From assembly GCA_046484245.1 (NCBI GenBank), contig JAWOBN010000070.1, forward strand, positions 1 to 47,422: DNA of 47,422 bases, written 5' to 3'. Position 1 is the stretch's first letter, and every line of letters starts with the position of its first letter. A model generated the notes under the pieces. That model was not told the DNA's origin. It did not search any database and saw only the letters and a program-made list of their open reading frames with translations. This document shows, in pieces, positions 515 to 28,382 of the stretch. Made by a program: the position numbers and the translations under genes. The stretch comes from a bacterium. GTDB taxonomy: Bacteria; Hydrothermota; 32-111.

Positions 515-519
515 GTATT

Positions 520-2112: not shown

Positions 2113-2137
2113 CAGCCCTCCAAGACTATTTTATCTA

Positions 2138-2356: not shown

Positions 2357-2378
2357 AATACAAAGAAAGGAGGTCGTT

Positions 2379-5441: not shown

Positions 5442-5468
5442 AGGGAGAGGTTTAAACCTCTTCCCTTC
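5440..5468. terminator. Hairpin between convergent genes, possible bidirectional terminator
   Basis: gaagggagaggttt/aaacctcttcccttc overlapping both stop regions. Confidence 0.5.
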
Positions 5469-8400
5469 TTCTCTTTATCCTTGACTCCACTATTGAATAG
5501 AGTACAGGTATGATAATAAGTGTCACCAGTGTGGATATAAAGAGGCCGCCCACCACAACAATACCCAGCGGCCTCCACATGCCTGAACCGCTTCCGGTTG
5601 AGACAGCCAGTGCCATCAGTCCGCTCATTGTGGTGAGTGCAGTCATCAGCACGGGCCTGAGACGGGTCTTGCCTGCAAGAGGCACAGCTTCCTCAACTGA
5701 CATGCCCCTTATTCTCAATTGATTGGTGAAATCAACAAGAACAATGGCATTATTGACTACAATACCTACCAGCATCAGCATGCCAATAAATCCCATTACG
5801 GACAATGCTGTATTGGTAATGAACAATGCCCATATCACACCGACAAATGCAAACGGCAGTGAAAATATTATGATAAACGGGTCAATGAATGACTCAAACT
5901 GACCTGCCATTACAAGGAAGACAAGAAGAATGCCCAGCATAATTGCAATTGCCAGATCCCTGAATGATTCCTGCTGACTCTCCACATCTCCGCCCTGGTC
6001 TATTCTCACACCATCAGGTATTCTCAAGTCCGAAACAATTTCATCCACTGCCAGTGTTGCTTCGGAAATAGGTATGCCGTCAACATTTGCCTCCACCTTG
6101 ACAAATCTTTCAGCATCCTTTCTCTCAATAAGAGGCGGCTCTTTTGTTCTCTTTATTTCAGCCACAGCAATTAGGGGCATGGACATCCCCATGGGATTGT
6201 AAACAGGAATACCGCTCAGATCATTAATTGATGTGAGGTATTTCTTGTCAAATGCCAGATTAATATCATATTCAAATCCGTCCTTTCTGAAGACAGAGAT
6301 ATCACTGCCATTGATGCCTGTATAAAGCGACTGCATGAGAAATGCGGTATTCATTCCTGTTGACGGCATTTTATCCTTTCTGGGTATAATGGAAATATTA
6401 TCAAATGCCTCATCCCTTGACAACGATATATCCACCAGACCGCTGACATCCTGCATACGGTCTCTGATTGATTTGGCAATAGAGAATATTTCCTCTACAT
6501 CACTGCCGTATATCTCCAGCTGTATCTGTTTGCCTCCGCCCATGAATCTGCCCCCGGGGCCGCCTGCAGAGAAATTGGATGACTGAATTTCAGGATAGGT
6601 GTTGAGCATGGCTCTGATTTTATTGATTGCATCACTGTATGTGCTTTCCCCTTCAAGATTCAGTTTGCCTATGACAGTAATTGAATATGAATTCCTGTCT
6701 GTTGACATTGCGCTATTGCCCCCTGATTCAAGCCCCGCCTGCATGGACCATATTGCAAATTCGGGGATCTCATTGGGTATAAGGATATTGAGTGAATCAA
6801 TAATGCTTGATGTTTCCTCAATTCTCATGCCCGGGATCAGCTTTACTGTTCCAAACACCATGGAGCTGTCCTCACTGGGGAAGAACTCTGTCTTCAGTGA
6901 AGGGATGATCATCAGCGACAGTATGAATATTATCACTGCTGACAAGAGGATGAATTTCTTATGCTTCAGTGCAAAATTGAGGAATCGGGAATAACCTGAT
7001 TCAACTGCAACAAATACTTTCTCAGATTTCAGCTCAAACTTAGTCTTTTTATGTCCGAGATGCCTCAGTATCCTTGATGAGAGCATCGGGGTCAGGGTTG
7101 TGGATGTTATCAGTGAACCCAGCAGCACAATGGACACTGTGTATGCAAGCTGTTCAAAGAGCACTGCTGTGAACCCCTGAACAAAAAGCAATGGAATGAA
7201 TATGGCAATTGTCGTGAATGTAGAGGCCATGATAGCAGTGACGACCTCTCTTGTCCCCCTGTATGATGCCTGCCTTATCTTCTCATTCTCCTCATCCCTG
7301 TGTCTGAAAATATTCTCCAGAACCACTATGGAATTATCCACAACCATTCCTATTGCAATGGAGATTGAGGCAAGTGAAATCACATTTATTGAACTGCCGG
7401 AGAAATAGAGATAGATAAATGCAATTATAAGTGAGAATGGTATTGCCAGTGCAATAATAAATGATCCCCTGAAGTTCCTGAGGAACAACAGTACTACAAG
7501 AATGACAAAGAAGAAGGCATACAGTACTGTTGAACGCAGATTGTTTATTGAATCCTCAATATCAACAGATGTATCATAGAGCATATCTATGCGTGTATTT
7601 TCCGGATAAATGTTTTTTGCCTCTTCAATCTTCTCCTTGACATCATCAACCACCTCAATGGTATTGGTGCCTGACTGTTTCTGGACAACAATAACAATGC
7701 CTTCATTATCCCTTATCTTACTGACAGACCGCATTTCCCCTGAACCGAATGTCACTTCAGCAACATCCTCCAGATATATGGTCTGATACGAATCTGTTGC
7801 ACCGATAACAGTCTTCCTGATCTCATCAATTGATTCATATTCACCGGGTATCCTGACTGAATATGCCATCTTGCCCTCTTTGACCTCACCAAGAGGTGCA
7901 TTGAGATTACTTGCAGTGATTGCACCTGTTATCTGACTGAGGGTTATATTGAATCTCTGCATAGAAGGTATATCTACCCGGATATTGACGCTTTTATCCC
8001 TGCCCGAAGCAAATACAGAACCGACACCTGAAGCCTGCCTCAGTTTATCCAATACCTGTTTTTCTGTTATTGCATAGAGATCCTCAACCGTCATGTCCGG
8101 TGATGAAACACCTACAACCATTACAGGGGCCATGGAACTGGAGAACTTAAAGACCATGGGGTCAGTCGCACCGTCAGGCAATCTGGATTTCACAAAATCA
8201 AGCTGACTTCTGATATCATTGAGTGCCGCATCCAGGTCCTTGCTGTAATCAAAGGTCACTTCAACAACAGATACTGATTCCCTGGACTCAGAGCTGATCT
8301 CTTCAATGTCCGGGACCATGGACACGGATGATTCAATCTGCTTTGTAATCTGTTCTTCAATATCAGTGCTTGATGCACCGGGATAATATGTAATAATTGA

Positions 8401-8529
8401 AACTGTGGGCAGCTCAATATTGGGGAACAGTTCTATTGGAATACTGGTAAGTGAAATCACACCCAGAATAAGCACTATGAGGAATGATACTATTACAAGA
8501 ATTGGCCGTTTTATTGCTAATTTAATCAT
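5452..8529 (-). CDS. RND (AcrB/AcrD/AcrF family) efflux transporter permease
   Basis: AIKRP N-terminus, GMVVDNSIVVLENI, GIVVNNAIVLVD, RLRPVLMT; 1025 aa. Confidence 0.96.
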   Translation of the reverse strand: MIKLAIKRPILVIVSFLIVLILGVISLTSIPIELFPNIELPTVSIITYYPGASSTDIEEQITKQIESSVSMVPDIEEISSESRESVSVVEVTFDYSKDLDAALNDIRSQLDFVKSRLPDGATDPMVFKFSSSMAPVMVVGVSSPDMTVEDLYAITEKQVLDKLRQASGVGSVFASGRDKSVNIRVDIPSMQRFNITLSQITGAITASNLNAPLGEVKEGKMAYSVRIPGEYESIDEIRKTVIGATDSYQTIYLEDVAEVTFGSGEMRSVSKIRDNEGIVIVVQKQSGTNTIEVVDDVKEKIEEAKNIYPENTRIDMLYDTSVDIEDSINNLRSTVLYAFFFVILVVLLFLRNFRGSFIIALAIPFSLIIAFIYLYFSGSSINVISLASISIAIGMVVDNSIVVLENIFRHRDEENEKIRQASYRGTREVVTAIMASTFTTIAIFIPLLFVQGFTAVLFEQLAYTVSIVLLGSLITSTTLTPMLSSRILRHLGHKKTKFELKSEKVFVAVESGYSRFLNFALKHKKFILLSAVIIFILSLMIIPSLKTEFFPSEDSSMVFGTVKLIPGMRIEETSSIIDSLNILIPNEIPEFAIWSMQAGLESGGNSAMSTDRNSYSITVIGKLNLEGESTYSDAINKIRAMLNTYPEIQSSNFSAGGPGGRFMGGGKQIQLEIYGSDVEEIFSIAKSIRDRMQDVSGLVDISLSRDEAFDNISIIPRKDKMPSTGMNTAFLMQSLYTGINGSDISVFRKDGFEYDINLAFDKKYLTSINDLSGIPVYNPMGMSMPLIAVAEIKRTKEPPLIERKDAERFVKVEANVDGIPISEATLAVDEIVSDLRIPDGVRIDQGGDVESQQESFRDLAIAIMLGILLVFLVMAGQFESFIDPFIIIFSLPFAFVGVIWALFITNTALSVMGFIGMLMLVGIVVNNAIVLVDFTNQLRIRGMSVEEAVPLAGKTRLRPVLMTALTTMSGLMALAVSTGSGSGMWRPLGIVVVGGLFISTLVTLIIIPVLYSIVESRIKRRREEV

Positions 8530-8536
8530 TATTACC

Positions 8537-9400
8537 TCACTTTATCCTTATCTTCTGACCATCCCTGACAAAGGATGAGCCTGCTGTTATAATACTGTCA
8601 CCGCTCTCAATGGAATTGATTATCTCAATATAGTCATTACCCATAAGCCCCGGCTCCACAGGCATCTTCACTGCCTTGCTGTTTTTGATAATATATATAT
8701 ATGAGTCCTCTCCATCACTGTGATATGCTTCATTCGGTATCCGGAGCACGCCCTCTTTCCTCTCAGTGAAAAGCTCTATTGATGCAGTACCGTTTATCAG
8801 TTTCCTGTTGCTGTTTGACAGCATGATATCCACTGAACCGAGTCCTGACCTGTTATTTGGGAAATAGGAGCATCTGGTCACCTTGCCGTCATAATGCTCT
8901 CCATCTACAATAACCTCTGCATTAACACATTCCCTCAATTTATTGAGTATATTTTTCGGCACATCAATACGTGCCATGATTCTTGAGGGATCGGAGATAT
9001 TGGCAACCGGTGCTTGCGGCATTACAGGCTGACCCTTAAGGAATGTCAGATCATATACAATACCGCTTATGGGTGCCTTTATTTTGGCTGATTCATATGT
9101 CATGCCGGGTATGGACCTGTCAATTTCAGCTATTGTCTGTTCCTTTTTGACATATTCCCCTTCACTGACATTGTATTTGATGAATTTGCCGGGCACATCC
9201 GGATATATCTCTGTCTGATTGACACCCTTCAATGTGCCGTAGAATTTCTCTTTGAGTATGACATCGCCCTTTTCTACAATTGTAAAGTCCACAAGACGGA
9301 CAAACTCTCTTCTCTGCACTTCAGGTCTTCTTCCCCTTGCCACGAAAATACCTGCAACTATTACGAGAATTATTATTGCGAGAATGATATATTTCTTCAT
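8537..9400 (-). CDS. RND membrane fusion (periplasmic adaptor) protein
   Basis: N-terminal anchor, biotinyl-lipoyl-like VSEGEYVKK, IKAPISG; lies between tolC-like and acrB-like genes. Confidence 0.9.
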   Translation of the reverse strand: MKKYIILAIIILVIVAGIFVARGRRPEVQRREFVRLVDFTIVEKGDVILKEKFYGTLKGVNQTEIYPDVPGKFIKYNVSEGEYVKKEQTIAEIDRSIPGMTYESAKIKAPISGIVYDLTFLKGQPVMPQAPVANISDPSRIMARIDVPKNILNKLRECVNAEVIVDGEHYDGKVTRCSYFPNNRSGLGSVDIMLSNSNRKLINGTASIELFTERKEGVLRIPNEAYHSDGEDSYIYIIKNSKAVKMPVEPGLMGNDYIEIINSIESGDSIITAGSSFVRDGQKIRIK

Positions 9401-9409
9401 TGTTCCTCC

Positions 9410-10750
9410 TTATAAAAGTCCGACTGCATTCAGCAGTGAATAATACTGTACTATGAGATTATAGAGTCCCTGTGAATAATCAGCCTTTGCCTGTATATAC
9501 CCGGACTCAGCATCCAGATAATCTGAATTGGATATTATTCCCTGTCTGTACTGTTCCTTTGCCATCTGCCATGCCTCTTCAGCAAGCTCCAGACCGGACT
9601 CATATGTATTCATATTCATCTGCGAGACATTGTACTTATCATGCACTTCTTTGACCTCTGCTTTTATCTGATTCTTCATATTGGCATAAGCCATTTTTAT
9701 CTGCTTCTGCTGATGCCCTGATTTCATTATATCAAGCACCCTCTTGCCTCCTGTAAAAACATCAAATGACATTGACAGCCCCCATGTGAAGGACTGGTCA
9801 ATTGCCAGTGTGTCAGAAAAGATTATCAGTGAATCCTGGCTTGCATTGGGAATATTATTATAGGAATTCTTGGCAAACCCGACAATATTGGGCAGGAATG
9901 CAAGCTTGGTCATAAGTGCAGCCCTCTCAACAATATTTACATTTTTCTCAAGTATATTGATATCCTTTCTCTCTTTGAGGGCTTCTGCTGACAACTCCTC
10001 CTCATTCTTGTCACTTATGTCTATTGGCTTTGGTCTCCGGCTTATCTCACTGAGACTTGTCTCCAGCTCAATCTCCTCATCAAAAGGCATGCCTATGAGT
10101 ATCTTCATGGACCGCATCAGATTCTCCTTGGCATTCTCCAGTTCAGCTACACGCGGTTTAACTGCATTGTACTGTGTGCGTGCTGACAATAGTTCAAGTT
10201 TGCTTGCAGCCCCCGCCTCATATCTGCTCTTTGCACTTGCAAGATGCTCTTCTTTTGCCTTGAGCAATGACTCTATCATATCAATGGATTCCTCCATCAG
10301 CAAACCTGACATATACATCTGTATTACAGCCATTTTGATATCGGATCTGTTCCGGAAATACTCCAGGTCCTTTATTTCATTCTGTGTCCTGGATATGAAG
10401 TAACCGTTTATCAGCTTGCCTCCCATGAATATCGGCACGGAAAGCTGCATATCAACAGAATAATTGTCTTCAACAGCCATCTTTATTTCCTGCACTCCCA
10501 GAGGAGTCGGCATGATGAATGTCGGGACTGAATCCAGTTTTGTATATCCTGCACTGACAGTGAGTTTGGGCAGGAAATTGCTGATTGATGAGTATTTGTC
10601 TATTTTAGCCATCTCCCTATCCTCAAATGACATCTTGAGACCCGGGGCATTGTCCAGTGCATAATCTATTGTCTCATTCAGTGTCATTGAGAATACAGAT
10701 ACAGACAAAACAGTAAGCATTAATATTGTAATTGCTGTTTTCCCTATCAC
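9410..10750 (-). CDS. TolC-family outer membrane efflux protein
   Basis: Signal peptide, MTLNETIDYALDN, FLPKL, LSVPIFMGG, RYEAGAASKLELL, YRQGIISNSDYLDA. Confidence 0.93.
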   Translation of the reverse strand: MIGKTAITILMLTVLSVSVFSMTLNETIDYALDNAPGLKMSFEDREMAKIDKYSSISNFLPKLTVSAGYTKLDSVPTFIMPTPLGVQEIKMAVEDNYSVDMQLSVPIFMGGKLINGYFISRTQNEIKDLEYFRNRSDIKMAVIQMYMSGLLMEESIDMIESLLKAKEEHLASAKSRYEAGAASKLELLSARTQYNAVKPRVAELENAKENLMRSMKILIGMPFDEEIELETSLSEISRRPKPIDISDKNEEELSAEALKERKDINILEKNVNIVERAALMTKLAFLPNIVGFAKNSYNNIPNASQDSLIIFSDTLAIDQSFTWGLSMSFDVFTGGKRVLDIMKSGHQQKQIKMAYANMKNQIKAEVKEVHDKYNVSQMNMNTYESGLELAEEAWQMAKEQYRQGIISNSDYLDAESGYIQAKADYSQGLYNLIVQYYSLLNAVGLL

Positions 10751-11331
10751 TCTTCCTCCTTTTTTAGCATATCTATTATAAATTTCTTATATCTTTCGTA
10801 TTTTGTTTCCGAAAATTTTTCTGACATAATTATGTACTGCATCATGAATGTATTCAATGAACCGATTATTATGTTAACAGCAATATCAGAATCAATATCC
10901 CTGAAAATACCTTCCCTCTTGCCTTCTTCTATAATTTGGCTTAATTGGCGGCTCCGTTTATTGTACATTTTCATAGGTCCCTTTTTATTGTCTTTCTTCA
11001 CCTTTATCAAGAAACCGGGCAATTCCCTCATTAATAATTTTGCAAATGATCTATTGCTTATCAAACCATTCACTGTTATATCAAAATAATTGTTAAGCTT
11101 GAACAATGCATCACCATCTGCATTGACTGCATCGTCAGCATATTTAAGCCACTCTGTCATCATATACTCCATACTGGACAGATAAAGGTCTGCTTTATCT
11201 TCAAAATACAGATACAATGTGCCTTTACCTACTCCCGCTTTGTCAGCAATATCCTTCACCCGGGTCTTTTCAAAACCATTTTCAGCCAGTTCCTTCAGTG
11301 TTGCCTGGAGTATTCTTTCCTTCTTGTTCAT
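10747..11331 (-). CDS. TetR/AcrR family transcriptional regulator
   Basis: IADKAGVGKGTLYLYFEDK HTH; start moved to ATG 11331 after the AGGAG RBS. Confidence 0.94.
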   Translation of the reverse strand: MNKKERILQATLKELAENGFEKTRVKDIADKAGVGKGTLYLYFEDKADLYLSSMEYMMTEWLKYADDAVNADGDALFKLNNYFDITVNGLISNRSFAKLLMRELPGFLIKVKKDNKKGPMKMYNKRSRQLSQIIEEGKREGIFRDIDSDIAVNIIIGSLNTFMMQYIIMSEKFSETKYERYKKFIIDMLKKEEE

Positions 11332-11356
11332 CTCACTCCTTATTTGATTATTATAC

Positions 11357-11385
11357 AATATAACGAAAACTGACCGGTCAGTCAA
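11357..11385 (-). promoter_or_regulatory. Promoter of the efflux operon with overlapping TetR-type operator
   Basis: TTGACT-17 nt-TATATT; perfect palindrome ACTGACCGGTCAGT at 11369-11382 overlaps the -35 and spacer. Confidence 0.75.
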
Positions 11386-11486
11386 CCCCCAAATGATATT
11401 TTATCCCTTGCATTATTTTGTTTTTTTTATATAATAATAAAATAGACAATTGAGAATTATTAATTATTGTATAACAAGGAGATTGG

Positions 11487-12845
11487 ATGAAGGTAGAATG
11501 TCCAAAATGTCACAGCAAATATGAGGTAGAGGATTCATATATACCCATAGGCGGAGCTCCTATTCAGTGTCCCAATTGCAGCAATATATTCGGAATCTAT
11601 GTTTCCCCTATTGATATACCGATGACACCGATTGAAGAAACAGAACCGCCATCAGAGGAAATTCCTGCAGAAGAGCCCCAGGCTCCCCAACCCGAGGCAG
11701 TAAAGGAGGAGGAATCATCCGAACTGGGCAGTGTTCTATCCAGTGCAGCCAGGGCAGCTGAAGAGTCAAAGGGTGAAGAGATGCCGGAGCCGCCTCAGAC
11801 AGAAGAGAGTTCAGAACTGGGCAGTATGCTGAGCAGTGCAGCAGAACACTCTGCTGAAAAGCCCGAAGCTCCTGCAGAACAGACCTCATCCGGTCAACCT
11901 GAAATAGAGAAATCCCCTGAACCGCCCAAGACAGACCAGACACCGCCTGATCTCGGAGATATGCTCGGCGGAGGAGCTGCTCAGCCGGCTTCACAGAGTG
12001 AACAGCCCTCTCCTGAACTGGGCAGTCAACCCGGTATAGAGAAATCACCCGAACAGCCTCAGGCAGAAGAAACACCTCCTGACCTCGGCGACATGCTCGG
12101 CGGAGGAGCTGCTCAGCAGGATTCCGGAAGTGAACAGCCCCGTCCAGATGAGACACCGCCTGACCTCGGAGATATGCTCGGCGGAGGAGCCGCTCAGCAG
12201 GATTCCGTTAATGAACAGCCATCTCCCGAACTGGGCAGTGAACCCGGTATAGAGAAATCACCTGAACAGCCTCAGGCAGAAGAAACACCTCCTGACCTCG
12301 GCGACATGCTCGGCGGAGGAACAGAACCTCAGCAGCCCTCACCTGCTCAAAGCAGTGGATTTGAAATAGAAAAATCGCATGAACCCCCTGCTCCGAGTCC
12401 AGAGACCCCCTCACCGGAACTGCCTCAGCAGTCAGAACCATCAACTGAACCTGCTCCATCTGAACCCAAACCCCAGCCGCCTGCTGCTGAAACTGAAGAG
12501 GGCGAAGCTAAACCGAAGCGTAAAGTAGGTCAGGGCCTTTTTGAAAGCCTGCTTGCAGGTTTCAATCTTCCTGATAATTTCAAGACATTGCCCAAGAATG
12601 TTCAGAAAAATCACAAGAGTGCTATCCGTCTTGCCAGACAGCTTGCCAAAGATATACTGCTCTATCATAAGGATGAAGTTGAAAATGGTCTGGAACAGGG
12701 CAATCTCAAAGAGCTCCTCAAGGATGAGATTGAGAAATCCTTCAAATTCTACTCGCAGAGGGTTCAGCCCGAGATACTGGAGAATATGGATTATTTCCGT
12801 GAGGCACTCAATAAGATAATAGGCAAAGGCGAGAATATATTCTAA
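11487..12845 (+). CDS. MJ0042-type zinc-ribbon protein with long Pro/Glu-rich repetitive linker and a helical C-terminal domain
   Basis: CPKC...CPNC N-terminus; acidic low-complexity middle; C-terminal AIRLARQLAKDILLYH...EIEKSFKFYSQRV; AGGAG RBS. Confidence 0.85.
   Translation: MKVECPKCHSKYEVEDSYIPIGGAPIQCPNCSNIFGIYVSPIDIPMTPIEETEPPSEEIPAEEPQAPQPEAVKEEESSELGSVLSSAARAAEESKGEEMPEPPQTEESSELGSMLSSAAEHSAEKPEAPAEQTSSGQPEIEKSPEPPKTDQTPPDLGDMLGGGAAQPASQSEQPSPELGSQPGIEKSPEQPQAEETPPDLGDMLGGGAAQQDSGSEQPRPDETPPDLGDMLGGGAAQQDSVNEQPSPELGSEPGIEKSPEQPQAEETPPDLGDMLGGGTEPQQPSPAQSSGFEIEKSHEPPAPSPETPSPELPQQSEPSTEPAPSEPKPQPPAAETEEGEAKPKRKVGQGLFESLLAGFNLPDNFKTLPKNVQKNHKSAIRLARQLAKDILLYHKDEVENGLEQGNLKELLKDEIEKSFKFYSQRVQPEILENMDYFREALNKIIGKGENIF
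11940..12320 (+). repeat. Intragenic tandem repeat encoding TPPDLGDMLGGG x4
   Basis: Units start at 11940, 12072, 12153 and 12285 (spacing 132/81/132 nt; higher-order period 213 nt). Confidence 0.9.
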
Positions 12846-12849
12846 GTTT

Positions 12850-12880
12850 AAAAGCGGGCATTGCCCGCTTTTCCCTTTTT
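12850..12880 (+). terminator. Intrinsic terminator
   Basis: aaaagcgggca/tgcccgctttt followed by T-rich tail. Confidence 0.75.
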
Positions 12881-12922
12881 TCATTCTATTCCAACAGTAA
12901 AGTTTTTTAATGTAATATAATC

Positions 12923-12964
12923 TTGACATTCTGTTTATAGTTTGTATTATTATATAAATACAAA
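12923..12964 (+). promoter_or_regulatory. Promoter with probable GntR (YtrA-type) operator
   Basis: TTGACA at 12923, TATTAT at 12945; palindrome TTTGTATT...AATACAAA at 12941-12964. Confidence 0.6.
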
Positions 12965-12972
12965 GGAGTATT

Positions 12973-13347
12973 ATGAATATTTTTATTGATTCCAATTCAC
13001 CTCTTGCTGTTTATAAACAGATCAAGAATCAGATAAAGGGGCTCATTATTCAATCAGAATTACCTGAAGGCACTGTTCTGCCTAGTATCAGAACACTGGC
13101 AGGCTATCTTGAGATTGCCAACAATACTGTTGCGAGGGCTTACTATGAACTGGAGAAGGAGGGATATCTGAAACTTGACGGCAGGAGAGGCAGTATTGTC
13201 CGCAAGACGCAGGAAACCGATGAATTACAGAGGAATGAATTCCTTATGAATCTCACAGAGGAATTCCTGTTGAGAAGCAGGGAGTACGGTTATACATCAG
13301 AGGAGATTACTGCTGCCATAGAGGAGATGTACAACCGGGTTTACTGA
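12973..13347 (+). CDS. GntR family (YtrA-like) transcriptional regulator
   Basis: YKQIKNQIK, LPSIRTLA, NTVARAYYELEKEG; 124 aa. Confidence 0.93.
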   Translation: MNIFIDSNSPLAVYKQIKNQIKGLIIQSELPEGTVLPSIRTLAGYLEIANNTVARAYYELEKEGYLKLDGRRGSIVRKTQETDELQRNEFLMNLTEEFLLRSREYGYTSEEITAAIEEMYNRVY

Positions 13348-14681
13348 TGAGAATTATAATTGACAGTGACACAACCTCTCTTCTGAGACCACTTGAGGAT
13401 ATCAGGTATTATTTTGTCGGCGGTTATGTGCGGGATAAATTGATGAAGCGCCCGTACAATGATATTGATATTATTGTATTTGAGCCAATTGAGACAATTG
13501 AGGAGAAACTCCAGTCCGGGGCATTTATTGTAAACAACAGGTTTGCAACTGCCAGGTTCTCGGTAAATAACCGTATTATTGATATCAATACAGTGAGTGA
13601 TCTGGATACTGATCTTAAAAGGAGGGATTTCACAGTCAATGCAATTGCTGCTGATAAAACAGGTGAGATCATTGACAGTGAAGGCGGTCTGGAGGATATA
13701 ACCAGGCATCTTATCAGGCCTGTATCAGACAGTGTTTTCAAGGATGATCCGCTTAGGCTTATGCGTGCACTGAGATACTCCGCAGATCTCTCATTTGCTC
13801 TAACCGAAAGGGCAGAAGACATGATTAACAGAGACAGCGGCCTGATAAGGGAGTCAGCTCCCGAGAGGATTAATGAAGAGCTCCACAAAATTTTTTCACA
13901 GCCCGGCCGCGCTTATCTGATGAGGACAATGGCTCACAGGGGTCTGCTCAAGCATATATTCCCCATGCTTGAAGGGACAGAATCATTTGAACACAAGAAA
14001 CATCATTCTACTCATCTTCTGGGGCATCTGCTCAATACAACTGAAGCTATTGACAGTATATTGAATTCTGATATCCCGGAGAGGCTTGAGCAGTATGGCA
14101 GGGAAAATACTTTTATACTTTATATATCAGCATTACTCCACGACATAGATAAGCCGGGCAAGATGAGAAAAAAGGGGGACGGACTGTCCTTTGCAGGCCA
14201 TGATAAGGGCAGTGCAGAGAAGGCATCACGGATGCTTAATAATCTGAGGGTGTCAAACAGAAAGATAAGGTCAGTAGAAACACTGATAAGCATGCACATG
14301 AGACCTCACCTGCTTCTTGCTTCCCGGAGAGTGACAAGCAGGGGCTATTACAGATTGATGAGGGATGCAGGGGAGGATCTGGAGGGTCTTATAATACTGA
14401 CAATGGCTGATAAATTATCCTCTGAGGGCATTATTGACAATTCCTATATTGAACTCTATGAGAGAATCATGGATGTGAAGAATGACATAGAAAAGGAAGC
14501 CATCAGTTTCATCACTGGTACAGATATCATGGATCATTTCAGTATTGAGGAAGGCCCCCTTATAGGAGATATGATTAACAGCGGCAATGAATATGCTGTT
14601 GATAACAATATAGACAGCAAGGAAAAGATCCTTGATTTCCTTGCAGATGAATTCAAAACCCGTTTACCGGATACGGATTAG
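13347..14681 (+). CDS. Class II tRNA nucleotidyltransferase with HD domain; probable CC-adding type
   Basis: VGGYVRD, DIDI, DLKRRDFTVNA, DDPLRLMRALRY, ERINEEL, LLHDIDKP; the flexible loop before motif B is missing. Confidence 0.88.
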   Translation: MRIIIDSDTTSLLRPLEDIRYYFVGGYVRDKLMKRPYNDIDIIVFEPIETIEEKLQSGAFIVNNRFATARFSVNNRIIDINTVSDLDTDLKRRDFTVNAIAADKTGEIIDSEGGLEDITRHLIRPVSDSVFKDDPLRLMRALRYSADLSFALTERAEDMINRDSGLIRESAPERINEELHKIFSQPGRAYLMRTMAHRGLLKHIFPMLEGTESFEHKKHHSTHLLGHLLNTTEAIDSILNSDIPERLEQYGRENTFILYISALLHDIDKPGKMRKKGDGLSFAGHDKGSAEKASRMLNNLRVSNRKIRSVETLISMHMRPHLLLASRRVTSRGYYRLMRDAGEDLEGLIILTMADKLSSEGIIDNSYIELYERIMDVKNDIEKEAISFITGTDIMDHFSIEEGPLIGDMINSGNEYAVDNNIDSKEKILDFLADEFKTRLPDTD

Positions 14682-17600
14682 CTTCTTCCTTATCATATCC
14701 CCATTCTCATTGCTCATCTGCATAAAGTATATGCCGGACGACACTCTGGTGCCGGAAGCATTCCACTGATACCTGTGAATACCGGATGAAGCAATGGTGA
14801 GTGTCTTTCCGTCAATCAATCTGCCATTGACATCATATATGACAACATTAATGCTGCTCCCCTGTGGGGCACTGAAACGCAGAGAATAATCATTACTGAA
14901 CACTGAAGGTGATGATGAGATATATGAGAATTTCACATCACTGTTTCTTCCGGCAAGTTCAAGACCGCTTCTCCCTGCAAAGAATTCCATTATCCTGTAC
15001 AGGATATTCTTTCTCGTTGACGGATATGCACTGTCATCAAGACCGGGAAGTTCAAAGGAGAGCCCCACTGTCCTGTAATCAGGTGTCTCATTGGCAATAC
15101 CGTATCCATCAGAATTATTGATGAATATCATCTGAGCTGTTGTATCAAGCACAGATATGAGGTCAAGATAATTGTTCTCACCCGAATAACTGCATGCAAT
15201 ACCATTCATCAGGGAACCATTGACACCGGAAAAACCGCCCGATACACTGCCCCCGTCACCAATAGGGTCAATGCCGAACAGGGTATTGAAAGAATATCCG
15301 CCCAAAGACACATCATAATACCAGCATTCTCCACCCTCCATATACATATTGATCTCACCTGCATTGAGGAGTGAATCAAGTGCTGAAGCAATCTCATTAC
15401 CGGCTTCAATGAGAGTATTATTGGGATATACGCCTCTTGTGAGGAAAACATTATTATATTGACTCAGATCTCCCGCACTGACAGTTGTTGCATAATCTCC
15501 CGAATAGCCCAGTTCAATGAGGAGAGAATCAATAACAGGACCTGAGGAATTATTGCCGTCATAGTCCAGTACAAGATAATCCTTCTTATTGAATGATATA
15601 CTGTCTGTAAATGTGTCTCTCCTGCCCAGTGCATTGCTAAATACAACAGAAAATCCCCTTCTTGTATAATCTGTAATTGAACTGTCCGGTATGAACATTA
15701 TGGTATCCGATACAACAGTACTGTCCGGATAGAGCGTGTCAACTGTATCTGTCGGGGATATAACTGTGAGGAGTGAGTCATCTGTTTCAACAGTGTAGAT
15801 AATACCATAATCATCCATGTCGCCATTATTTTTCATTGATACTGTGATAAACGAGGTATCGCCCTTTGCCCCGTGCTTGACAAAATTACTGTATTCTGTG
15901 TGCGGGGCAAATATTTCACTGTACAGTTCCCGGCTCACTGAATCACCCGCTCCATTATAGAGCAATGAGGAGAATACAATTGTGGAATCATAATGCGCAT
16001 TGCCTGACAGAGAGGCCTCTATGAAACCGTCTGTTATTACTGCAGTTCCGGGCAGTATTGTATCAGGAATATCTATCAGAGTGTCACTGAGGGACAAATA
16101 AGGACTTCCGGACTTGATTACTGATGTAAGACCCGTTATTGTATCACTGCCGTAATTGGCTATCTCCAGATGTATCCTCCCGGTGTCCCCTGCAGAGAAG
16201 AGACTGTCCCTGCCACCATAATTGAATATTGAATCATTGAATTTTATTCTTGTTATTGACGGGGCAAAGGGAATATCACCGAGAATTATCTGCTGACTGT
16301 CCATCCTGCAATCATGCTCTGAAGCATATATCATCAATGTATCACCTTGAGAGAATGTGTTTTCAAATGCAATATACCCGTTGTACTGAGTCCTGGCACC
16401 TGCAATAAGCGAGTCACTGTGCATAAGAGCTGTATATGCATCATGATAACTGCTGTTGAGAAACACATTGGCCCTTATGCTGTCAATATCACCGGGCATT
16501 ACAGAATCAGCTGCAATAGAGAGATTGCCCTCTACTGTTGATTTGAGGTCAAATGAGGGATCACCCAGTATATTGTACATCTCAAAATACCTCTTGGACA
16601 AGCCGCTGCCTGAATATGCAGCATAGACCATATGTTTGGAGAAATTGAGCATACTCCCTGTGAATGTATAGGATGAATCAGTGTACCCGTCAATAAGAGA
16701 CCGCTCCATTATATCATCCTCATACCAGTAGGAATTTACTGATGAGCCGACAAAACCGGCAGCGCCATTGTCTGCCCTGAGCCAAGTTTCACCGAAGGAT
16801 TCGGAGGTATGGGCATAATCACCTGTAAGACATGCATAGGAGAAAACCAGCGGATACATCTGAGCATTGGTCAATGCATTGATGCCGGACTGGTTGAATG
16901 AGGGTCCTCCCCAAGCTGTCTCTAATCCGTGCCCTGTGTATATGGCAACTGTTCTGCCATTATTGATTGCCTCTGCAACAGGTGTACCTGTTCCGTAATA
17001 ATCATAGAAGGAATCCACTGTCATATTGATATCCCGTAACCTTGAAGCTGCATAGTTTTGTGTAGCTTCAGCCAGTTCATGGAATGAACCGTCATCTGTT
17101 GCCATGAGATATGCTCTCTGAGCCCATGTGTCTGACACAGACCAATCCGCCTGTTGAACAGTAATATTCTTCTCAATAACTCCCTTTAACTGAGTGGTAT
17201 CTGAAACAGACATCCTGCCTATATATACATCAGGGAAATAATCCTCCCCGTCCAGTGTTGAGTAATAGAGGTCAGTTGGAGGATTGTCCATCTCTGTGCC
17301 TATAAAATGGGGAATCTCATCAGTGTCCCCTATAAGCAGGACAAATTCAAGGCCGAATGCATTACTGTCATAGAAATTCTGAATCGCCTGTTTTATCTCC
17401 GTATTGGTGCTGCCTACAGTATCTGTCTCCAAAACCCTTACCATGAACCCCTGTCTCTTCTTGAGATCTATCAGATCCCCGAGATGGCCTGCAAAACGTG
17501 AGGATGTCACAATGAGATATACGGACATGGGTGAATACAGATCATCATAATCAAATATCTGATCTTGTTCATAATCAATGCGTGCTTCTGTATAAATAAT

Positions 17601-18110
17601 AAGAGTGTTTTGAGCAGGATTGTACTTCACAGGGTAGAATTCAACAAGCACCTTTGACTCGCCCATTATTGTGCCGGGACTTACTGTTTCAAGTGTATGT
17701 TCGGGAAGGAATCTGTTTGATGAATAGATCTCACTGTTCACAGTAAATTGAGGCTCCTGCCCCTTCATAACAGGACTCTGAACAGGATAAATCCTCTCAC
17801 TGCCTTTCAATGGATAAACCAGTGAATCAATAACAGTTACTGAATAATCCCTGGTATTGCCGTCTGTGAATATTCTTACAGCAGGTAGCTGCGGGCTGCC
17901 CGGTGTATTGGTGAACTGCATGTCAGTACTTCCAAATCTCCAGTAGCCATTCTCTTCAAAGAGGGATATTCTTTCTGCCTTGATTTCTATTCTGCCGGGA
18001 TATTTTGTAACAGCAAAATCATCACCGGTTTTATCACCTGGAATGATTTCAAGTGCAGACAGAGAGGAGGCAATGATTAATATTATTATAAGCGAAATTG
18101 ATTTACGCAT
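14664..18110 (-). CDS. C25 (gingipain-like) cysteine peptidase with propeptide and T9SS-like C-terminal domain
   Basis: Signal peptide; PGSPQLP propeptide; VLLIGD, TDLYY, IGRMS, YTGHG, YACLTG, FGETWLR, YNILGDP; C-terminus IYDVNGRLI...SSGIYF...KKLIRIR. Confidence 0.92.
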   Translation of the reverse strand: MRKSISLIIILIIASSLSALEIIPGDKTGDDFAVTKYPGRIEIKAERISLFEENGYWRFGSTDMQFTNTPGSPQLPAVRIFTDGNTRDYSVTVIDSLVYPLKGSERIYPVQSPVMKGQEPQFTVNSEIYSSNRFLPEHTLETVSPGTIMGESKVLVEFYPVKYNPAQNTLIIYTEARIDYEQDQIFDYDDLYSPMSVYLIVTSSRFAGHLGDLIDLKKRQGFMVRVLETDTVGSTNTEIKQAIQNFYDSNAFGLEFVLLIGDTDEIPHFIGTEMDNPPTDLYYSTLDGEDYFPDVYIGRMSVSDTTQLKGVIEKNITVQQADWSVSDTWAQRAYLMATDDGSFHELAEATQNYAASRLRDINMTVDSFYDYYGTGTPVAEAINNGRTVAIYTGHGLETAWGGPSFNQSGINALTNAQMYPLVFSYACLTGDYAHTSESFGETWLRADNGAAGFVGSSVNSYWYEDDIMERSLIDGYTDSSYTFTGSMLNFSKHMVYAAYSGSGLSKRYFEMYNILGDPSFDLKSTVEGNLSIAADSVMPGDIDSIRANVFLNSSYHDAYTALMHSDSLIAGARTQYNGYIAFENTFSQGDTLMIYASEHDCRMDSQQIILGDIPFAPSITRIKFNDSIFNYGGRDSLFSAGDTGRIHLEIANYGSDTITGLTSVIKSGSPYLSLSDTLIDIPDTILPGTAVITDGFIEASLSGNAHYDSTIVFSSLLYNGAGDSVSRELYSEIFAPHTEYSNFVKHGAKGDTSFITVSMKNNGDMDDYGIIYTVETDDSLLTVISPTDTVDTLYPDSTVVSDTIMFIPDSSITDYTRRGFSVVFSNALGRRDTFTDSISFNKKDYLVLDYDGNNSSGPVIDSLLIELGYSGDYATTVSAGDLSQYNNVFLTRGVYPNNTLIEAGNEIASALDSLLNAGEINMYMEGGECWYYDVSLGGYSFNTLFGIDPIGDGGSVSGGFSGVNGSLMNGIACSYSGENNYLDLISVLDTTAQMIFINNSDGYGIANETPDYRTVGLSFELPGLDDSAYPSTRKNILYRIMEFFAGRSGLELAGRNSDVKFSYISSSPSVFSNDYSLRFSAPQGSSINVVIYDVNGRLIDGKTLTIASSGIHRYQWNASGTRVSSGIYFMQMSNENGDMIRKKLIRIR

Positions 18111-18182
18111 AATGCTCCTTTTATATATTGATATAATCTAATAAAATACATACGCATTGTCAAGAGCAGCAGGGTAACAAAA

Positions 18183-18974
18183 TTATCCTTTCCTGAAAAT
18201 TCCCTGTTTCAGCATACCGAATCCATTGAAGGAATGCCTCAGTGTGAGGATAATGGATAATGTTACTGTAATGGACACAGCAGTGAATATCGCAATTATT
18301 ATGGCTATCTGATACTTGATTGCTGTCATGGGTGTGGAACCGCCCAGTATCTGACCTGTCATCATGCCCGGCAGTGAAACAATGCCTATTGTCGCCATAT
18401 TGGCAATAGAGGGTTTGAGGGCTGATCTGAGCCCGTCCCTCAGATAGGGCAGTGTTGCTTCAAATTTACTTGCCCCCAGTGAGAGACTGTAAATATACCT
18501 GTTATTGTTTCTCTTGATATCCTTATAGAATGTAGTGATGCCTATTATATTGCCCCTGAGAGAATTGCCCAGAAGCATCCCACCTATAATGATAAAGTAC
18601 TTTGCCTCAGTAATATCCTCTATACCGACAATAATGTAATTGAAATATATGAGAATGAGGAATACAGACAGTGTGAATGCCAGAAGAACAGGCAAGGCGA
18701 ATATTCTTACCGAGAGTCCGCTGTTTCTAATAACAGCAATGACTGCTACAATTATCATTATAATGAGCCAGAGAATATTGAGTGGACCGAAATCCCATTC
18801 AAAGAGATACTTTAAGAAGAGTGCCATTAAGAATAACTGCAGTGTCATCCTGGCAAATGACACAAGCATTGACCTTATAATGCCAAGATGGAATATGCGG
18901 CTTATTGCAATAGGTATAAGGAGGAGGAGAAATCCCAATCCGAGAGATACAATGGTTATATCAACAGCACCCAT
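18183..18974 (-). CDS. fetB: UPF0014/FetB (YbbM)-like ABC permease, putative iron export
   Basis: RMTLQL, GMLLGN, SLGAS, GIVSLPGMMTGQILGG, AIKYQI. Confidence 0.88.
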   Translation of the reverse strand: MGAVDITIVSLGLGFLLLLIPIAISRIFHLGIIRSMLVSFARMTLQLFLMALFLKYLFEWDFGPLNILWLIIMIIVAVIAVIRNSGLSVRIFALPVLLAFTLSVFLILIYFNYIIVGIEDITEAKYFIIIGGMLLGNSLRGNIIGITTFYKDIKRNNNRYIYSLSLGASKFEATLPYLRDGLRSALKPSIANMATIGIVSLPGMMTGQILGGSTPMTAIKYQIAIIIAIFTAVSITVTLSIILTLRHSFNGFGMLKQGIFRKG

Positions 18975-18976
18975 AA

Positions 18977-19609
18977 TTAGTCCATATCAATTATTCTGAT
19001 ATTATCTGAATCTCTCCAGAGATTGTCATGTGAAACTATAATGACAGTCCAGTCGCTGTGTCCCGTAAAGAGTTCAGCCACCTTATTCTTCTTACCGGTA
19101 TCAAGTGACGCTGTGGGTTCATCAAGGAGGAAAACATCCCTCCTCAGTATAAGTGATATGATAATGAGGACTCTCTGCTGCTCTCCGCCGGACAGTTCAT
19201 TGAAATGCTTATCAAGGTATCTCTCGGACATATCAAAATACTCCAGCCACTCAATGGTCTTTGACATTGAACAGCATTTATCCCTGTTATTCCTGTAACC
19301 GGTCACTGTCTCTATCAATTCCCTTACAGTACTGCCGGACATATCAGTACTCTGGGGAACATACGCTATTTCCTGTCTTATGTCCCAAACATTGTCCTTG
19401 CTGATATGCTCATCCCTGAACATGATCTCACCACTGTGGGGCCTGAGAAACCCCATGAGGAGATTGAGAACGGATGTCTTGCCGCCTCCCGAATCACCGT
19501 ACAATAAAACCTTCTCACCCTTCTTCACAGTTAGATTGAAATCATGAAGCACTCTCTTGCCTTCAAATGACAATTCAATATTCCTCATCTTGAAATATAC
19601 ATCACCCAT
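18977..19609 (-). CDS. fetA: FetA (YbbL)-like ABC ATP-binding protein
   Basis: GDSGGGKT, LSGGEQQR, LLDEPTASLD, VSHD; directly upstream of the fetB-like gene. Confidence 0.85.
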   Translation of the reverse strand: MGDVYFKMRNIELSFEGKRVLHDFNLTVKKGEKVLLYGDSGGGKTSVLNLLMGFLRPHSGEIMFRDEHISKDNVWDIRQEIAYVPQSTDMSGSTVRELIETVTGYRNNRDKCCSMSKTIEWLEYFDMSERYLDKHFNELSGGEQQRVLIIISLILRRDVFLLDEPTASLDTGKKNKVAELFTGHSDWTVIIVSHDNLWRDSDNIRIIDMD

Positions 19610-19615
19610 GTATAG

Positions 19616-19644
19616 AGAATATTTAATAAAACATAAATTGTCAA
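19616..19644 (-). promoter_or_regulatory. Sigma70-type promoter giving a probable leaderless fetA mRNA
   Basis: TTGACA-17 nt-TATTCT, 6 nt, then ATG; no SD. Confidence 0.6.
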
Positions 19645-19708
19645 CACCACAGTGAACTGTCTTTTTTCAACATCTGTCCCTTTCCCCCCATTTTGTAAAA
19701 ACCGCCCC

Positions 19709-19869
19709 TCCAAATCCCAGGTCCGGTAGTTGCATAGGTTGCACAACTAATATCGCTTAATTTATGTGGTTCACATCAGACCCTGTATAAGCTCAGTTAT
19801 TTATTGTTTTACATATTATGACCTTTGACTTTTCTGCAACCTATGCAACTACCGGACCTGGGATTTGGA
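19709..19869. mobile_element. 161-bp MITE-like inverted-repeat element, copy 1
   Basis: Perfect 35-bp IR TCCAAATCCCAGGTCCGGTAGTTGCATAGGTTGCA (19709-19743 / 19835-19869); second copy at 47139-47299. Confidence 0.8.
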
Positions 19870-19998
19870 CATAATGCTGGGTAAAGCAAGTATTAGCTAA
19901 TCTTATGTGGGATTTTGGCCTGTTTTACTCAAAATCCATTTGATATATTCCACCTCCGTCCCTCCATCGTCATGCGTGATGCGTCGGGAAATTTGTAT

Positions 19999-20071
19999 TA
20001 GGCTTCAAATTGTTGAATTCCTACGATCCCCTCATTATTCGTAATGGGCGGGTTATTAACGCCGCCCCTAC
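19999..20071 (-). repeat. Two GTAG-initiated REP-like hairpins
   Basis: Minus strand GTAGGGGCGGCGTTAATAACCCGCCC (20071-20046) and GTAGGAATTCAACAATTTGAAGCCTA (20024-19999). Confidence 0.5.
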
Positions 20072-20161
20072 ATACATCCTGTTTATCGCTTCTCTTTTCC
20101 ACTTTCAACTCATTTCCAGTCACCAGCATACCGGATACAAGCCGGTAAATTCTCTCTGGCC

Positions 20162-20213
20162 TTGACAAATCACGGGAGATAACTATAATATTATTGAAAA
20201 CGGTTATCAATAA
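20162..20213 (+). promoter_or_regulatory. fur promoter with Fur-box-like operator
   Basis: TTGACA-16 nt-TATAAT (20162-20189); TTATTGAAAACGGTTATCAATAA imperfect palindrome (20191-20213). Confidence 0.75.
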
Positions 20214-20221
20214 GGAGTGAG

Positions 20222-20686
20222 ATGAATAATAATGAATCAAACAGGAAGCCCAGGCGGCTCAGGCGCATGATGCGCAACAGAGGGTACAGGATGACATCAG
20301 CCCGTGAAGCCATACTTGATGTTCTATCCAGGGAATCCAAGCATCTCTCAGCCAAAGAGGTCTATTCCAAGGTTCTCCTCATTGAACCGGGCACAGGACT
20401 GACAACTGTTTACAGGACACTGGAGACACTCTCTGAAATGGGTGTGGTCAATAAAATAGAAATAGGCGATAAGACATCAAGATATGAGCTTATTAGGGAA
20501 GGTCACAGGCATCATCATCACATAATATGCACAAACTGCAATAAAGTGATTGATTATGATGATTTCATGGAGGAAGAGATGGAGATGTTCTGTAAACTGG
20601 AGAAGGAATTGGAAAAGAAATACAATGTAGAGATAAAGGGACATAATGTACAGTTCTTTGCAGTATGCAGGGAATGCAGGGAGTAA
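20222..20686 (+). CDS. fur: Fur family transcriptional regulator
   Basis: GYRMTSAREAIL, HLSAKEVY, TTVYRTL, HHHHIICTNC, C-terminal CREC. Confidence 0.93.
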   Translation: MNNNESNRKPRRLRRMMRNRGYRMTSAREAILDVLSRESKHLSAKEVYSKVLLIEPGTGLTTVYRTLETLSEMGVVNKIEIGDKTSRYELIREGHRHHHHIICTNCNKVIDYDDFMEEEMEMFCKLEKELEKKYNVEIKGHNVQFFAVCRECRE

Positions 20687-20699
20687 AAAAATTTGATTA

Positions 20700-20722
20700 T
20701 TAATGAAAATGATTATCATTAA
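20700..20722 (+). promoter_or_regulatory. Fur box
   Basis: TTAATGAAAATGATTATCATTAA; one mismatch to the 7-1-7 TGATAAT-N-ATTATCA consensus. Confidence 0.75.
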
Positions 20723-24461: not shown

Positions 24462-25205
24462 ATGTCACATAAATCCATCAGGCAATATACCCCCGAAGCT
24501 GTTGACGACAGTATTATTGAAACCATTGTAAGGGCAGGACAACAGGCTGCATTTGCCTCACAGGCATATTCCCTTCTACTGAAGAGGGACAGTGAGAATA
24601 ACCCGTTTCATGCTCCCCTGCTTTTTACTGTCTGCATTGATGCTCATAAATTTGAACTTATCATGAAAAAACGGGGCTGGAACAAAACTGCAATGAATGA
24701 TGTTTTTCTCTTTATCCTCAATATGCAGGATGCATGTTATGCTGCTCAGAATCTCGTAATTGCTGCTGAATCAATGGGTTTGGGGACATGCTATCTGGGA
24801 ATGACGCCTTATATTGCAGAGAGTATTGCTAAAGAGTATAATTTGCCCGAAAGGGTATTCCCATTTGTTCAGATTACTGTCGGTTATCCTGATGAGGAGC
24901 CGGATATCAGACCGAGATATCCCCTTGATTTTACACTCTTTGAGGATAAATACGGGTTCTCAGAAGATACACTCAAAAGAGCAATGGACCAGATGGACCT
25001 AGGATATCTCAAACAGGATTATTATAGAAAAGCCAATTATATGATACCATTGAATGACAGGAATGAGAAATATGACTTCAGCAATTACTCTTGGACAGAG
25101 CATATATCCAGGAAATGGGGCCAGTGGTATCCTAAGAAGGACAGTATTCTGAAGATACTGTCAAAATGCGGATTTGATATTGCAGACAAGAGCGACCAAT
25201 CTTGA
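24462..25205 (+). CDS. NfsA/Frp-like nitroreductase (true start may be ATC at 24438)
   Basis: HKSIRQY, AAQNLVIAAESMGLGTCYLG, NLPERVFP, GYPDE..RPR. Confidence 0.88.
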   Translation: MSHKSIRQYTPEAVDDSIIETIVRAGQQAAFASQAYSLLLKRDSENNPFHAPLLFTVCIDAHKFELIMKKRGWNKTAMNDVFLFILNMQDACYAAQNLVIAAESMGLGTCYLGMTPYIAESIAKEYNLPERVFPFVQITVGYPDEEPDIRPRYPLDFTLFEDKYGFSEDTLKRAMDQMDLGYLKQDYYRKANYMIPLNDRNEKYDFSNYSWTEHISRKWGQWYPKKDSILKILSKCGFDIADKSDQS

Positions 25206-25279
25206 CAATTCCCTGAACTCTTTCTGCTAATCTAATATATTCCATCACTTACATTCGGCACATACTATTGTTTGTTTAT
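25077..25279 (+). repeat. Direct repeat, left copy (nitroreductase 3' end plus downstream region)
   Basis: Aligns with 28181-28382 at offset ~3104, with scattered substitutions. Confidence 0.92.
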
Positions 25280-28171: not shown

Positions 28172-28309
28172 AAATATAGTTTCAGCAATTACTCATGGAC
28201 AGAGCATATATCCAGGAAATGGGGGCAATGGAAGCCTCAGAAGGACAGTATTTTGAAGATACTGTCAAAATGCGGATTTGATTTCAGGGATAAGAGCGAC
28301 AATTCCTGA
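28172..28309 (+). pseudogene. Orphan 3' fragment of the nitroreductase gene
   Basis: Reads KYSFSNYSWTEHISRKWGQWKPQKDSILKILSKCGFDFRDKSDNS*, homologous to the C-terminus of 24462-25205, with the stop at the equivalent position. Confidence 0.85.
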
Positions 28310-28382
28310 CAATCCCCTGAACTCCTTCTGCTAATCTAATATATTTCCACACTTACATTCGGCACACACATTGCTTGTTTAT
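28181..28382 (+). repeat. Direct repeat, right copy
   Basis: Aligns with 25077-25279. Confidence 0.92.
28360..28375 (+). promoter_or_regulatory. Putative sigma54 (-24/-12) promoter
   Basis: CGGCAC-ACACA-TTGCT (GG-N10-GC), 30 nt before the methyltransferase ATG. Confidence 0.55.

Follow-up and report, generated by a model that had tools for sequence, protein, structure and literature searches.

What kind of element keeps its two ends letter for letter while the DNA between them changes? This question is raised by a stretch of 47,422 nucleotides (nt) of bacterial DNA (GTDB lineage Bacteria; Hydrothermota; 32-111), the whole of which is referred to here as the window, and in which two elements of 161 base pairs (bp) lie at positions 19709-19869 (copy 1) and 47139-47299 (copy 2). 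Each consists of a pair of inverted arms of 35 bp around a core. The window is contig C110 (JAWOBN010000070.1) of the assembly GCA_046484245.1, denoted G000, which comprises 1.8 Mb in 117 contigs, is 92% complete, and has contigs that break at repeats. The 161-bp elements are very probably non-autonomous dimers of terminal inverted repeats (TIRs) that serve as miniatures of a TIRtron, similar in kind to MITEs (transposable elements that are miniature and bounded by inverted repeats) and to REPINs. The TIRtron in this case is an element of about 0.9 kb, in which one TIRYT gene lies between TIRs of 35-38 bp and encodes a Y1 HUH transposase with a probable C-terminal helix-turn-helix (HTH), similar to the repetitive extragenic palindrome (REP)-associated tyrosine transposases (RAYTs).

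The window contains four exact matches to the arm, TCCAAATCCCAGGTCCGGTAGTTGCATAGGTTGCA, which was found in none of 100 dinucleotide-preserving shuffles. This agrees with a preliminary description of the DNA, made from the sequence alone, in which four arms were reported to be identical over 35 bp. The left arm of copy 1 is at 19709-19743 on the + strand, with its inverted copy, the right arm, at 19835-19869 on the - strand; the arms of copy 2 are at 47139-47173 (+) and 47265-47299 (-), and this element as a whole is inverted relative to copy 1. The arms reach 38 nt if one mismatch is allowed, which takes the left arm of copy 1 to 19746. They carry a direct repeat of GTTGCA (GTTGCAtagGTTGCA), as first described, and the cores (19744-19834 in copy 1 and 47174-47264 in copy 2) are both AT-rich and 91 nt long. 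Alignment of the cores in matching orientation returned the same figure as before, with 62 of 92 columns identical (0.67). No target-site duplication is visible in the flanks, which read ...CGCCCC/element/CATAAT... for copy 1 and ...CCAATT/element/AAAATC... for copy 2. The further remark that the window contains no transposase or recombinase was borne out: none of its 20 Y1 transposase matches is on this contig, both of its two tyrosine recombinases are on others, and there is no serine recombinase at the Pfam cut-off.

The source of the arms is found in a sister species, G010, which is the sole other genome of the same genus among 272 genomes of the phylum. A 24-nt pattern from the arm, searched with up to 3 mismatches, is present in 2 of these 272 genomes, G000 and G010. 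A wider scan of 185,579 species genomes, from which the source genome's own records may be left out, located the arm only in G010 contigs, and a scan of metagenome contigs gave 0 matches. The preliminary description had proposed a BLASTN search with the arm and a search for an autonomous element with the same ends; six copies were found in G000 and, among the 272 genomes, only G010 also had the arm, and the search for an autonomous element succeeded there. At positions 469-1377 of contig C78 in G010 is an element of 909 bp, with TCCAAATCCCAGGTCCGGTAGTTGCATAGGTTGCAGAA at both ends and a single open reading frame (ORF) of 270 amino acids (aa). Its ends equal the family arm over 35 nt, and over 38 nt for one arm of each window copy; the left arm of copy 1 is identical to its TIR. 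The miniatures have as their arms the two ends of a TIRYT element.

The protein encoded by the G010 element has the residues expected of a Y1 HUH transposase, with H60 and H62 (HUH) and Y120 (YxHxNP) invariant in 17/17 aligned relatives. An AlphaFold2 model built from this 17-relative alignment has a mean predicted local distance difference test score of 88.5, and includes confident helices at residues 229-244, 249-256, and 260-268. The top match of the model in Foldseek is 4ER8, the TnpA-REP protein of E. coli with a REP hairpin (E = 5.6e-8, TM 0.72 on the target), which ranks above the TnpA structures of IS608 and ISDra2, and a search with the sequence profile matched no HUH protein but 4ER8 (E = 1.2e-3). 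Identical ends on an element that carries a RAYT-like Y1 transposase support the first of the four options listed at the outset, which was a family of MITE-like or REPIN-like elements mobilized in trans.

Within G000 the superfamily to which these elements belong has diversified, with about ten full-length paralogues that each have their own inner arm sequence, and gene-less miniatures that match them. The outer 12-13 nt of the arm are common to 123 arm ends in G000, and the outer 13 nt, TCCAAATCCC[A/G]GG, are common to all subfamilies in the genus. The full-length elements are 907-923 bp long and contain one ORF of 271-273 aa each. Ten of the 20 transposase matches are near full-length, with identities of 37-100%, and the others are mostly fragments at contig ends. 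Two of the paralogues were compared with domain models, matching Y1_Tnp of Pfam with E about 1e-9 and 137 of the 146 profile positions of REP_Tyr_transpos of NCBIfam (60 bits, compared with a cut-off of 80). Matches to HTH_3, HTH_23, and HTH_38 at residues 239-270 have E = 4e-4 to 1e-3, all below the Pfam cut-offs, and the transposase profile matches HTH domains in the PDB such as those of KorA and the C-terminus of Tn3 resolvase. When the 15 TIRs that flank transposases were compared with themselves, self-similarity peaked at an offset of 9 nt (z = 3.8; the best offset in 9/15), although these TIRs are related rather than independent. The same 9-nt pattern is present in the arm of the 161-bp family, as GTTGCAtag GTTGCAgaa.

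The miniatures of G000 fall within a narrow range of sizes. Their arms pair up, as judged by eye, with the ends of particular paralogues, and the 39 short paired elements comprise 28 of 158 bp, 4 of 161, 3 of 162, 2 of 159, 1 of 157, and 1 of 160, with longer nested forms also present among the outer-arm sites. Among the 28 elements whose length is exactly 158 bp, core identity has a median of 0.64, barely exceeding the 0.56 of shuffled cores. When 25 oriented 158-bp elements are stacked, some short motifs prove to be invariant in both sequence and position, one of them being CTAAGT at 78-83, which is the midpoint. The midpoint motif of the 161-bp family is (A/G)CTTA, seen as TAAGCT at 19788-19793 in copy 1 (midpoint 19789) and as ACTTAT at 47216-47221 in copy 2 (midpoint 47219), and it occurs in both length classes.

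Constraint on the arms is clear when copies are compared. The six copies in G000 are all 161 or 162 bp long and are located at C110:19709 (copy 1) and, with identity to copy 1 in brackets, at C100:31815 (98%), C11:2727 (90%), C110:47139 (copy 2; 81% by BLAST of the whole element, arms included), C77:3233 (77%), and C78:5056 (72%). They lie in six unrelated contexts, and none of the six has a target duplication. With one copy from G010 added, the arm differences among the seven copies amount to 0-2 in 70 positions and are confined to arm position 11 (A or G), and core identity ranges from 0.57 to 0.97; the length is 161-162 bp in 7/7, held within 1 bp. One orthologous pair, on contig C78 of G000 and contig C57 of G010, allows the comparison to be extended across species. 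The surrounding 1.9 kb aligns at 88%, and the numbers of identical positions are 68/70 for the arms, 64/95 for the core, and 46/61 and 48/63 for the nearest 60-nt flanks (Fisher p = 8e-7 for arms versus core and 4e-5 for arms versus near flanks). Conservation of the arms far exceeds that of cores or flanks, and does so also in this copy inherited by two species; the arms have therefore been kept, or repeatedly restored, since the species split. It had been proposed that arm sequence and spacing are constrained while the core drifts; this proposal is upheld by these figures, except that the core does not simply drift, since its midpoint motif is kept.

The preliminary description did not recognize the family, yet it fits a published class. 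According to the parts of the two reports used here, Di Nocera et al. (2013; PMC3733652) described TIRYTs as RAYT-like genes flanked by long inverted repeats, in units named TIRtrons. The repeats form moderately abundant families found as singles, dimers, and clusters, and many of them (the majority, not all) contain the motif GGGGWSAS. In the classification of Quentin et al. (2018; PMC6006769), most TIRYTs are in subclass 2.1, whose members are long, have a C-terminal HTH or Bac_DnaA_C-like domain, and were found in 14.9% of surveyed strains; the GGGG motif was considered unlike a DnaA box, which left the role of the C-terminal domain open. The elements described here share with TIRtrons a RAYT-like Y1 HUH transposase that is longer than RAYTs and has a probable C-terminal HTH, a gene placed between long terminal inverted repeats that are not self-complementary, and the dispersal of these repeats as singles and inverted dimers. 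They also share the presence of several paralogues per genome with their own repeat each, and sibling arms in G000 carry GGGGWSAS as GGGGACAG or GGGGACGG. Three features differ from the published descriptions, and have no counterpart in the same parts of PMC3733652 and PMC6006769. All arms in the genus have an extra shared outer 10 nt, TCCAAATCCC; the dimers have a constant length, either 158 or 161-162 bp, and a motif at the midpoint; and about ten full-length paralogues are present in a genome of 1.8 Mb, with some lineages at several sites.

Comparison with better-known systems depends in part on how the DNA can fold. As single-stranded DNA, the whole element forms a stem of 35-38 bp (-46.8 kcal/mol, z = -13.3), and 0/200 shuffles fold as well; in the centroid structure, pairing is between the arms only. 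The single arm is not self-complementary, with a fold of -2.4 kcal/mol (z = -0.2) that is equalled in stability by 82/200 shuffles, and the folds of the cores are within chance (z = -0.6, +1.1, and +0.4). In REPINs, as set out in the part of Bertels and Rainey (2011; PMC3116915) used here, the inverted ends are invariant and the spacer between them is less conserved, but its length matters. The 161-bp family resembles them in its conserved inverted ends and its less conserved spacer of conserved length, in repeats that also flank a Y1 transposase gene, with one repeat family per transposase, in the lack of target duplication, and in having TnpA-REP (4ER8) as the closest solved fold. It differs in that each REP is a palindrome tagged with GTAG, whereas the arms here are not palindromic and have GTAG internally, at arm positions 18-21. 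Furthermore, REPIN spacers pair with compensatory changes, in contrast with the unpaired core of 91 nt, and RAYTs are typically single-copy and lack an HTH.

Bacterial MITEs such as Nezha, Correia, and RUP, as described in part of PMC3184786, are also similar: they are 130-170 bp long, are intergenic, and have ends identical to the TIRs of a full-length element, which in the case of Nezha was found only in a related species. The flanking direct repeats of these classical MITEs are, however, missing from all six copies here. A second difference lies in the partner enzyme, which here is a Y1 HUH transposase. Correia and RUP are tied to DDE transposases. Insertion sequences of the IS200/IS605 group and the gene-less palindrome-associated transposable elements (PATEs) share with the present elements a Y1 HUH catalytic domain, the absence of target duplication, and re-use of a site after excision, which is known for IS200/IS605. 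Their ends, though, take the form of asymmetric subterminal hairpins and have no terminal inverted repeats, and their TnpA, at about 140 aa, has no HTH.

These features can be combined in a model of how the miniatures would be mobilized. The cognate TIRYT would act in trans on a pair of arms, with its conserved catalytic domain cutting and joining within the outer 13 nt, TCCAAATCCC[A/G]GG. The inner 20-odd nt may be made up of a tandem pair of units, each of about 9 bp and specific to its paralogue, and could provide an address for the variable HTH domain. The fixed length of the elements, together with the midpoint motif, suggests that the two arms meet on double-stranded DNA with a defined geometry, and that a single-strand hairpin is not the sole form in which they pair. 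The next element might then re-use the junction from which an earlier one had departed, with subfamilies replacing each other in either orientation.

We infer movement of the family, rather than observe it, and the comparison of equivalent sites in the two species is informative in this respect. At three loci G000 and G010 contain different subfamilies: a recF-like/glyQ locus, the site of copy 1, and the site on C77. The first (G010 L039:300-1560 and G000 C90, L018:835-2090) has flanks that are about 93-98% identical by an estimate made by eye, with a G000 paralogue that is 59% identical in protein and whose arms both differ likewise. Divergence there runs about 25 nt to the left and 30 nt to the right beyond the inverted repeats, so the unit exchanged may exceed the part that they bound. 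The counterpart of the copy 1 site in G010 is occupied by a different miniature with GGGACGGTGGTTAAC ends, and at the C77 site the first 12 nt are shared and lead into a different, degenerate arm. The finding of different subfamilies at the same sites, in either orientation, fits with an enzyme that re-uses the junction of an earlier element.

Orientation is best seen at the site of copy 1, which is a slot formed by two repeats. On its left is the L module (19660-19708, + strand), a repeat of about 45 nt (TTTCAACATCTGTCC..CATTTTGTAAAAACC.CCCC), and on its right is R_B (19870-20005, + strand), a dispersed repeat of about 135 nt that also flanks sibling elements; L is part of the slot, not of the 161-bp family. 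In G000 the L module adjoins a superfamily arm in 20/20 BLAST hits, and among the 158-bp siblings it is attached in one fixed orientation in 25/25 orientable elements. Copy 1 and the copy on C100 both lie between homologous L and R_B repeats, in opposite orientations, and the elements are 98% identical within flanks that are 83-88% identical. The simplest reading of this flipped pair is that the slot was already present in two old copies, each of which later received an element by a separate insertion.

The G000 site C117:15013-15022 (L109:1504-1513) may be a scar of excision or else a target that is empty. Its sequence, TCCAATTGGA, joins the outermost five bases of one arm directly to those of the other, between halves of an L repeat, and G010 has a full element at the orthologous site (the contig ends of C63 and C65). 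This is a single case, with no second site of the kind in 14 genomes of the family, and its left flank also differs between the species.

Several observations weigh against the interpretation of the 161-bp elements as TIRtron miniatures. The ends of the 161-bp family, GGTCCGGTAGTTGCATAGGTTGCA, are on none of the transposase paralogues in the G000 assembly, in which the best matches to the G010 protein are 67% identical (full length) and 72% (a fragment). Origin of the core by deletion from the autonomous element was considered and rejected, since the best local alignment had a score of only 20 over about 40 nt; lacking clear similarity to the interior of that element, the miniature is not a simple deletion derivative. 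The arm of the family departs from GGGGWSAS, with AGGTCCGG in its place (the arm reads CCCAGGTCCGG). The parts of PMC3733652 and PMC6006769 used here contain no biochemistry on TIRYTs. Neither an excision junction nor a new insertion of the family was seen in the public runs, which are available only as contigs broken at repeats. Empty sites, which had been suggested as a check, gave no support: no clean one is present in G010 for the six G000 copies, where the flanks of copy 2 are absent, the C11 locus is cut short by the end of a contig, the arm at the C100 locus is arranged differently, and the C78 copy is shared. Finally, arm conservation in a vertically inherited copy is not predicted for a purely selfish element, and needs either selection at the level of the host or repeated homogenization.

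Selection of this type is the basis of the strongest alternative, which we nevertheless consider improbable. The elements would be derived from a transposon, with arms kept by the host as a site of fixed geometry for binding of proteins or structuring of DNA, for example in nucleoid organization or regulation. The same has been argued for REPIN-RAYT systems, and these are vertically persistent according to parts of two preprints (10.1101/2021.07.10.451892 and 10.1101/2022.05.22.493013). Arm identity in the inherited copy is above the neutral level, at 68/70 compared with 0.75-0.76 in the near flanks; length within 1 bp and the midpoint motif are consistent with a fixed site; and all six copies are intergenic, with copy 1 standing clear of both predicted promoters of the operons beside it. 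A role for the host would, however, have to be served by six copies only, with an arm that is confined to one genus and with no shared class of neighbouring gene, given that only 3/6 copies are beside iron (Fe) or Fe-S genes. The transposase lineages occupy several sites each, in the manner of insertion sequences, and homogenization by a transposase could also account for the conservation of the arms. This explanation overlaps with that of TIRtron miniatures, and the two could coexist.

It is very improbable that the elements are invertible DNA switches, another of the options in the preliminary description, in which a recombinase would flip the 91-bp core between the 35-bp repeats and cause phase variation of the divergent operons. 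Perfect inverted repeats around a short, AT-rich segment between divergent operons would suit such a switch, as would the opposite orientations of copy 1 and the C100 copy between homologous flanks. The latter are better explained by separate later insertions, since identity is higher inside the elements than in their flanks, and no invertase was identified: the only two tyrosine recombinases genome-wide are both off the contig, and no serine recombinase is above the Pfam cut-off. In addition, a consensus promoter scan at copy 1 placed no promoter-like site inside the element, those of both operons being outside, the arms form the termini of an element bearing a transposase, and the six copies are in unrelated contexts. 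A hairpin RNA, also suggested earlier and imagined as a small RNA, a terminator, or a stabilizer of mRNA, is the least credible explanation of all. The long stem of the whole element is in its favour; against it are cores that fold at the level of chance, matches in Rfam that are all sub-threshold and concern long hairpins of a generic type (plant MIR precursors and WsnRNA46, at 34.7 bits with a cut-off of 65.3, among them), no run of T after the stem, variable orientation to neighbouring genes, and a stem so invariant that it has no room for covariation.

Identification of the elements as miniatures of a TIRtron places them in a class that is already published but barely studied, and for which an arm in two parts, a fixed length combined with a motif at the midpoint, and the exchange of cassettes are features that deserve the attention of specialists. 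TIRYTs make up a large share of RAYT-like genes. The pair of G000 and G010 provides a compact natural data set, comprising about ten paralogues with matched ends and miniatures, three replacement loci, and one orthologous miniature that dates the constraint on the arms. Testable proposals follow, namely that the 9-bp tandem units are the target of the HTH and that the shared outer 13 nt are the site of cutting. A wider claim is possible, but we regard it as doubtful: that TIRYTs differ from every Y1 transposase studied in reading double-stranded ends through a two-part address, in assembly at a fixed distance around a midpoint motif, and in exchanging cassettes at old junctions. If this were true, an address made of a shared cut site and 9-bp units bound by a DnaA_C-like HTH would let at least seven lineages coexist without cross-talk, and would explain the strict lengths of 158 and 161 bp, the swaps of subfamilies at sites, and the intact arms in inherited copies.

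The genes beside the copies had been described as operons that include metal or Fe-S genes, downstream of intergenic elements. Both copies in the window are indeed intergenic and adjoin such genes. Copy 1 has an ABC-ATPase/UPF0014 operon (- strand) on one side and fur, a Nitro_FeMo-Co gene, and two MinD/4Fe-4S genes (+ strand) on the other; copy 2 is beside a DUF362/4Fe-4S gene. A real link with metal genes is not evident over the six copies in G000, since one of the other four is beside an Fe-S gene (FeS_assembly_P) and the rest are beside rpmH-rnpA, rimM/aldolase, and genes without a Pfam match. An association in 3/6 copies was judged to be uninformative, the host being an anaerobe rich in genes of this type. 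For genome annotation, the result marks the elements beside fur and Fe-S genes as mobile DNA and not as sites of regulation particular to these operons.

Various smaller observations concern the arms and their surroundings. Immediately past the right arm of copy 2 are 14 nt, CTGATTATACAATT (47305-47318, + strand), and the same 14 nt are just past the right end of the autonomous element in G010; they are possibly a tail that belongs to the element. Inner arm hexamers at the left ends of full-length elements resemble, by eye, -35 boxes (TTGCAT, TTGAAT, and TTCACA). In the G010 element (L039:500-527) TATAAT is located 17 nt after TTGCAT, and ATG is 6 nt past TATAAT, which suggests that the transposase mRNA may be leaderless, with a putative promoter overlapping the proposed HTH site. 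Four public runs cover positions 18900-20700 of the window as Logan contigs broken at repeats, in which a single joint (19874 to 20000) and the loose ends derive from other repeat copies, and no inversion, excision, or transcript was seen in these broken contigs. In one of them, X1, the loose end at 19708 shows the arm beside a flank resembling the glyQ side in G010, which hints that a cognate full-length element is present in that sample.

Two other observations relate to the superfamily in the genus. The full-length element at C46:8174-9100 (L023) has a left arm of the GGTGGTTGCAATTTAAGCAAT subfamily and a right arm of the GGTCCTTCATTTCTATAAC subfamily, both of which also occur on short elements, and it looks like a chimera of two lineages. 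A second type of miniature, with ends GGTTCTTCTCC...GGAGAAGAACC, is inserted 2-10 nt inside the arms of many subfamilies of TIRYT miniatures and often holds a 158-bp miniature within itself; examples are at C69:9337-9980, C63:44610-45132, and C101:26985-27100 in G000, and from L063:2827 onward in G010.

The window also contains repeats of other types. A short, dispersed hairpin motif, GG(C)TTCAAATTGTTGAA(C/T)(C/T)CCTACGA, is present at 19989-20027 and to the right of the C77 copy (L005:1690-1720); it is found on at least 10 contigs, from BLAST matches to positions 120-158 of the right flank, and is conserved at the copy 1 locus in G010. The remaining repeats are a pair of 236 nt with 97% identity (37769-38004 and 43015-43250), a pair of 198 nt with 87% identity (25068-25265 and 28172-28369), and a tandem duplication of 213 nt with 89% identity (11918-12320).

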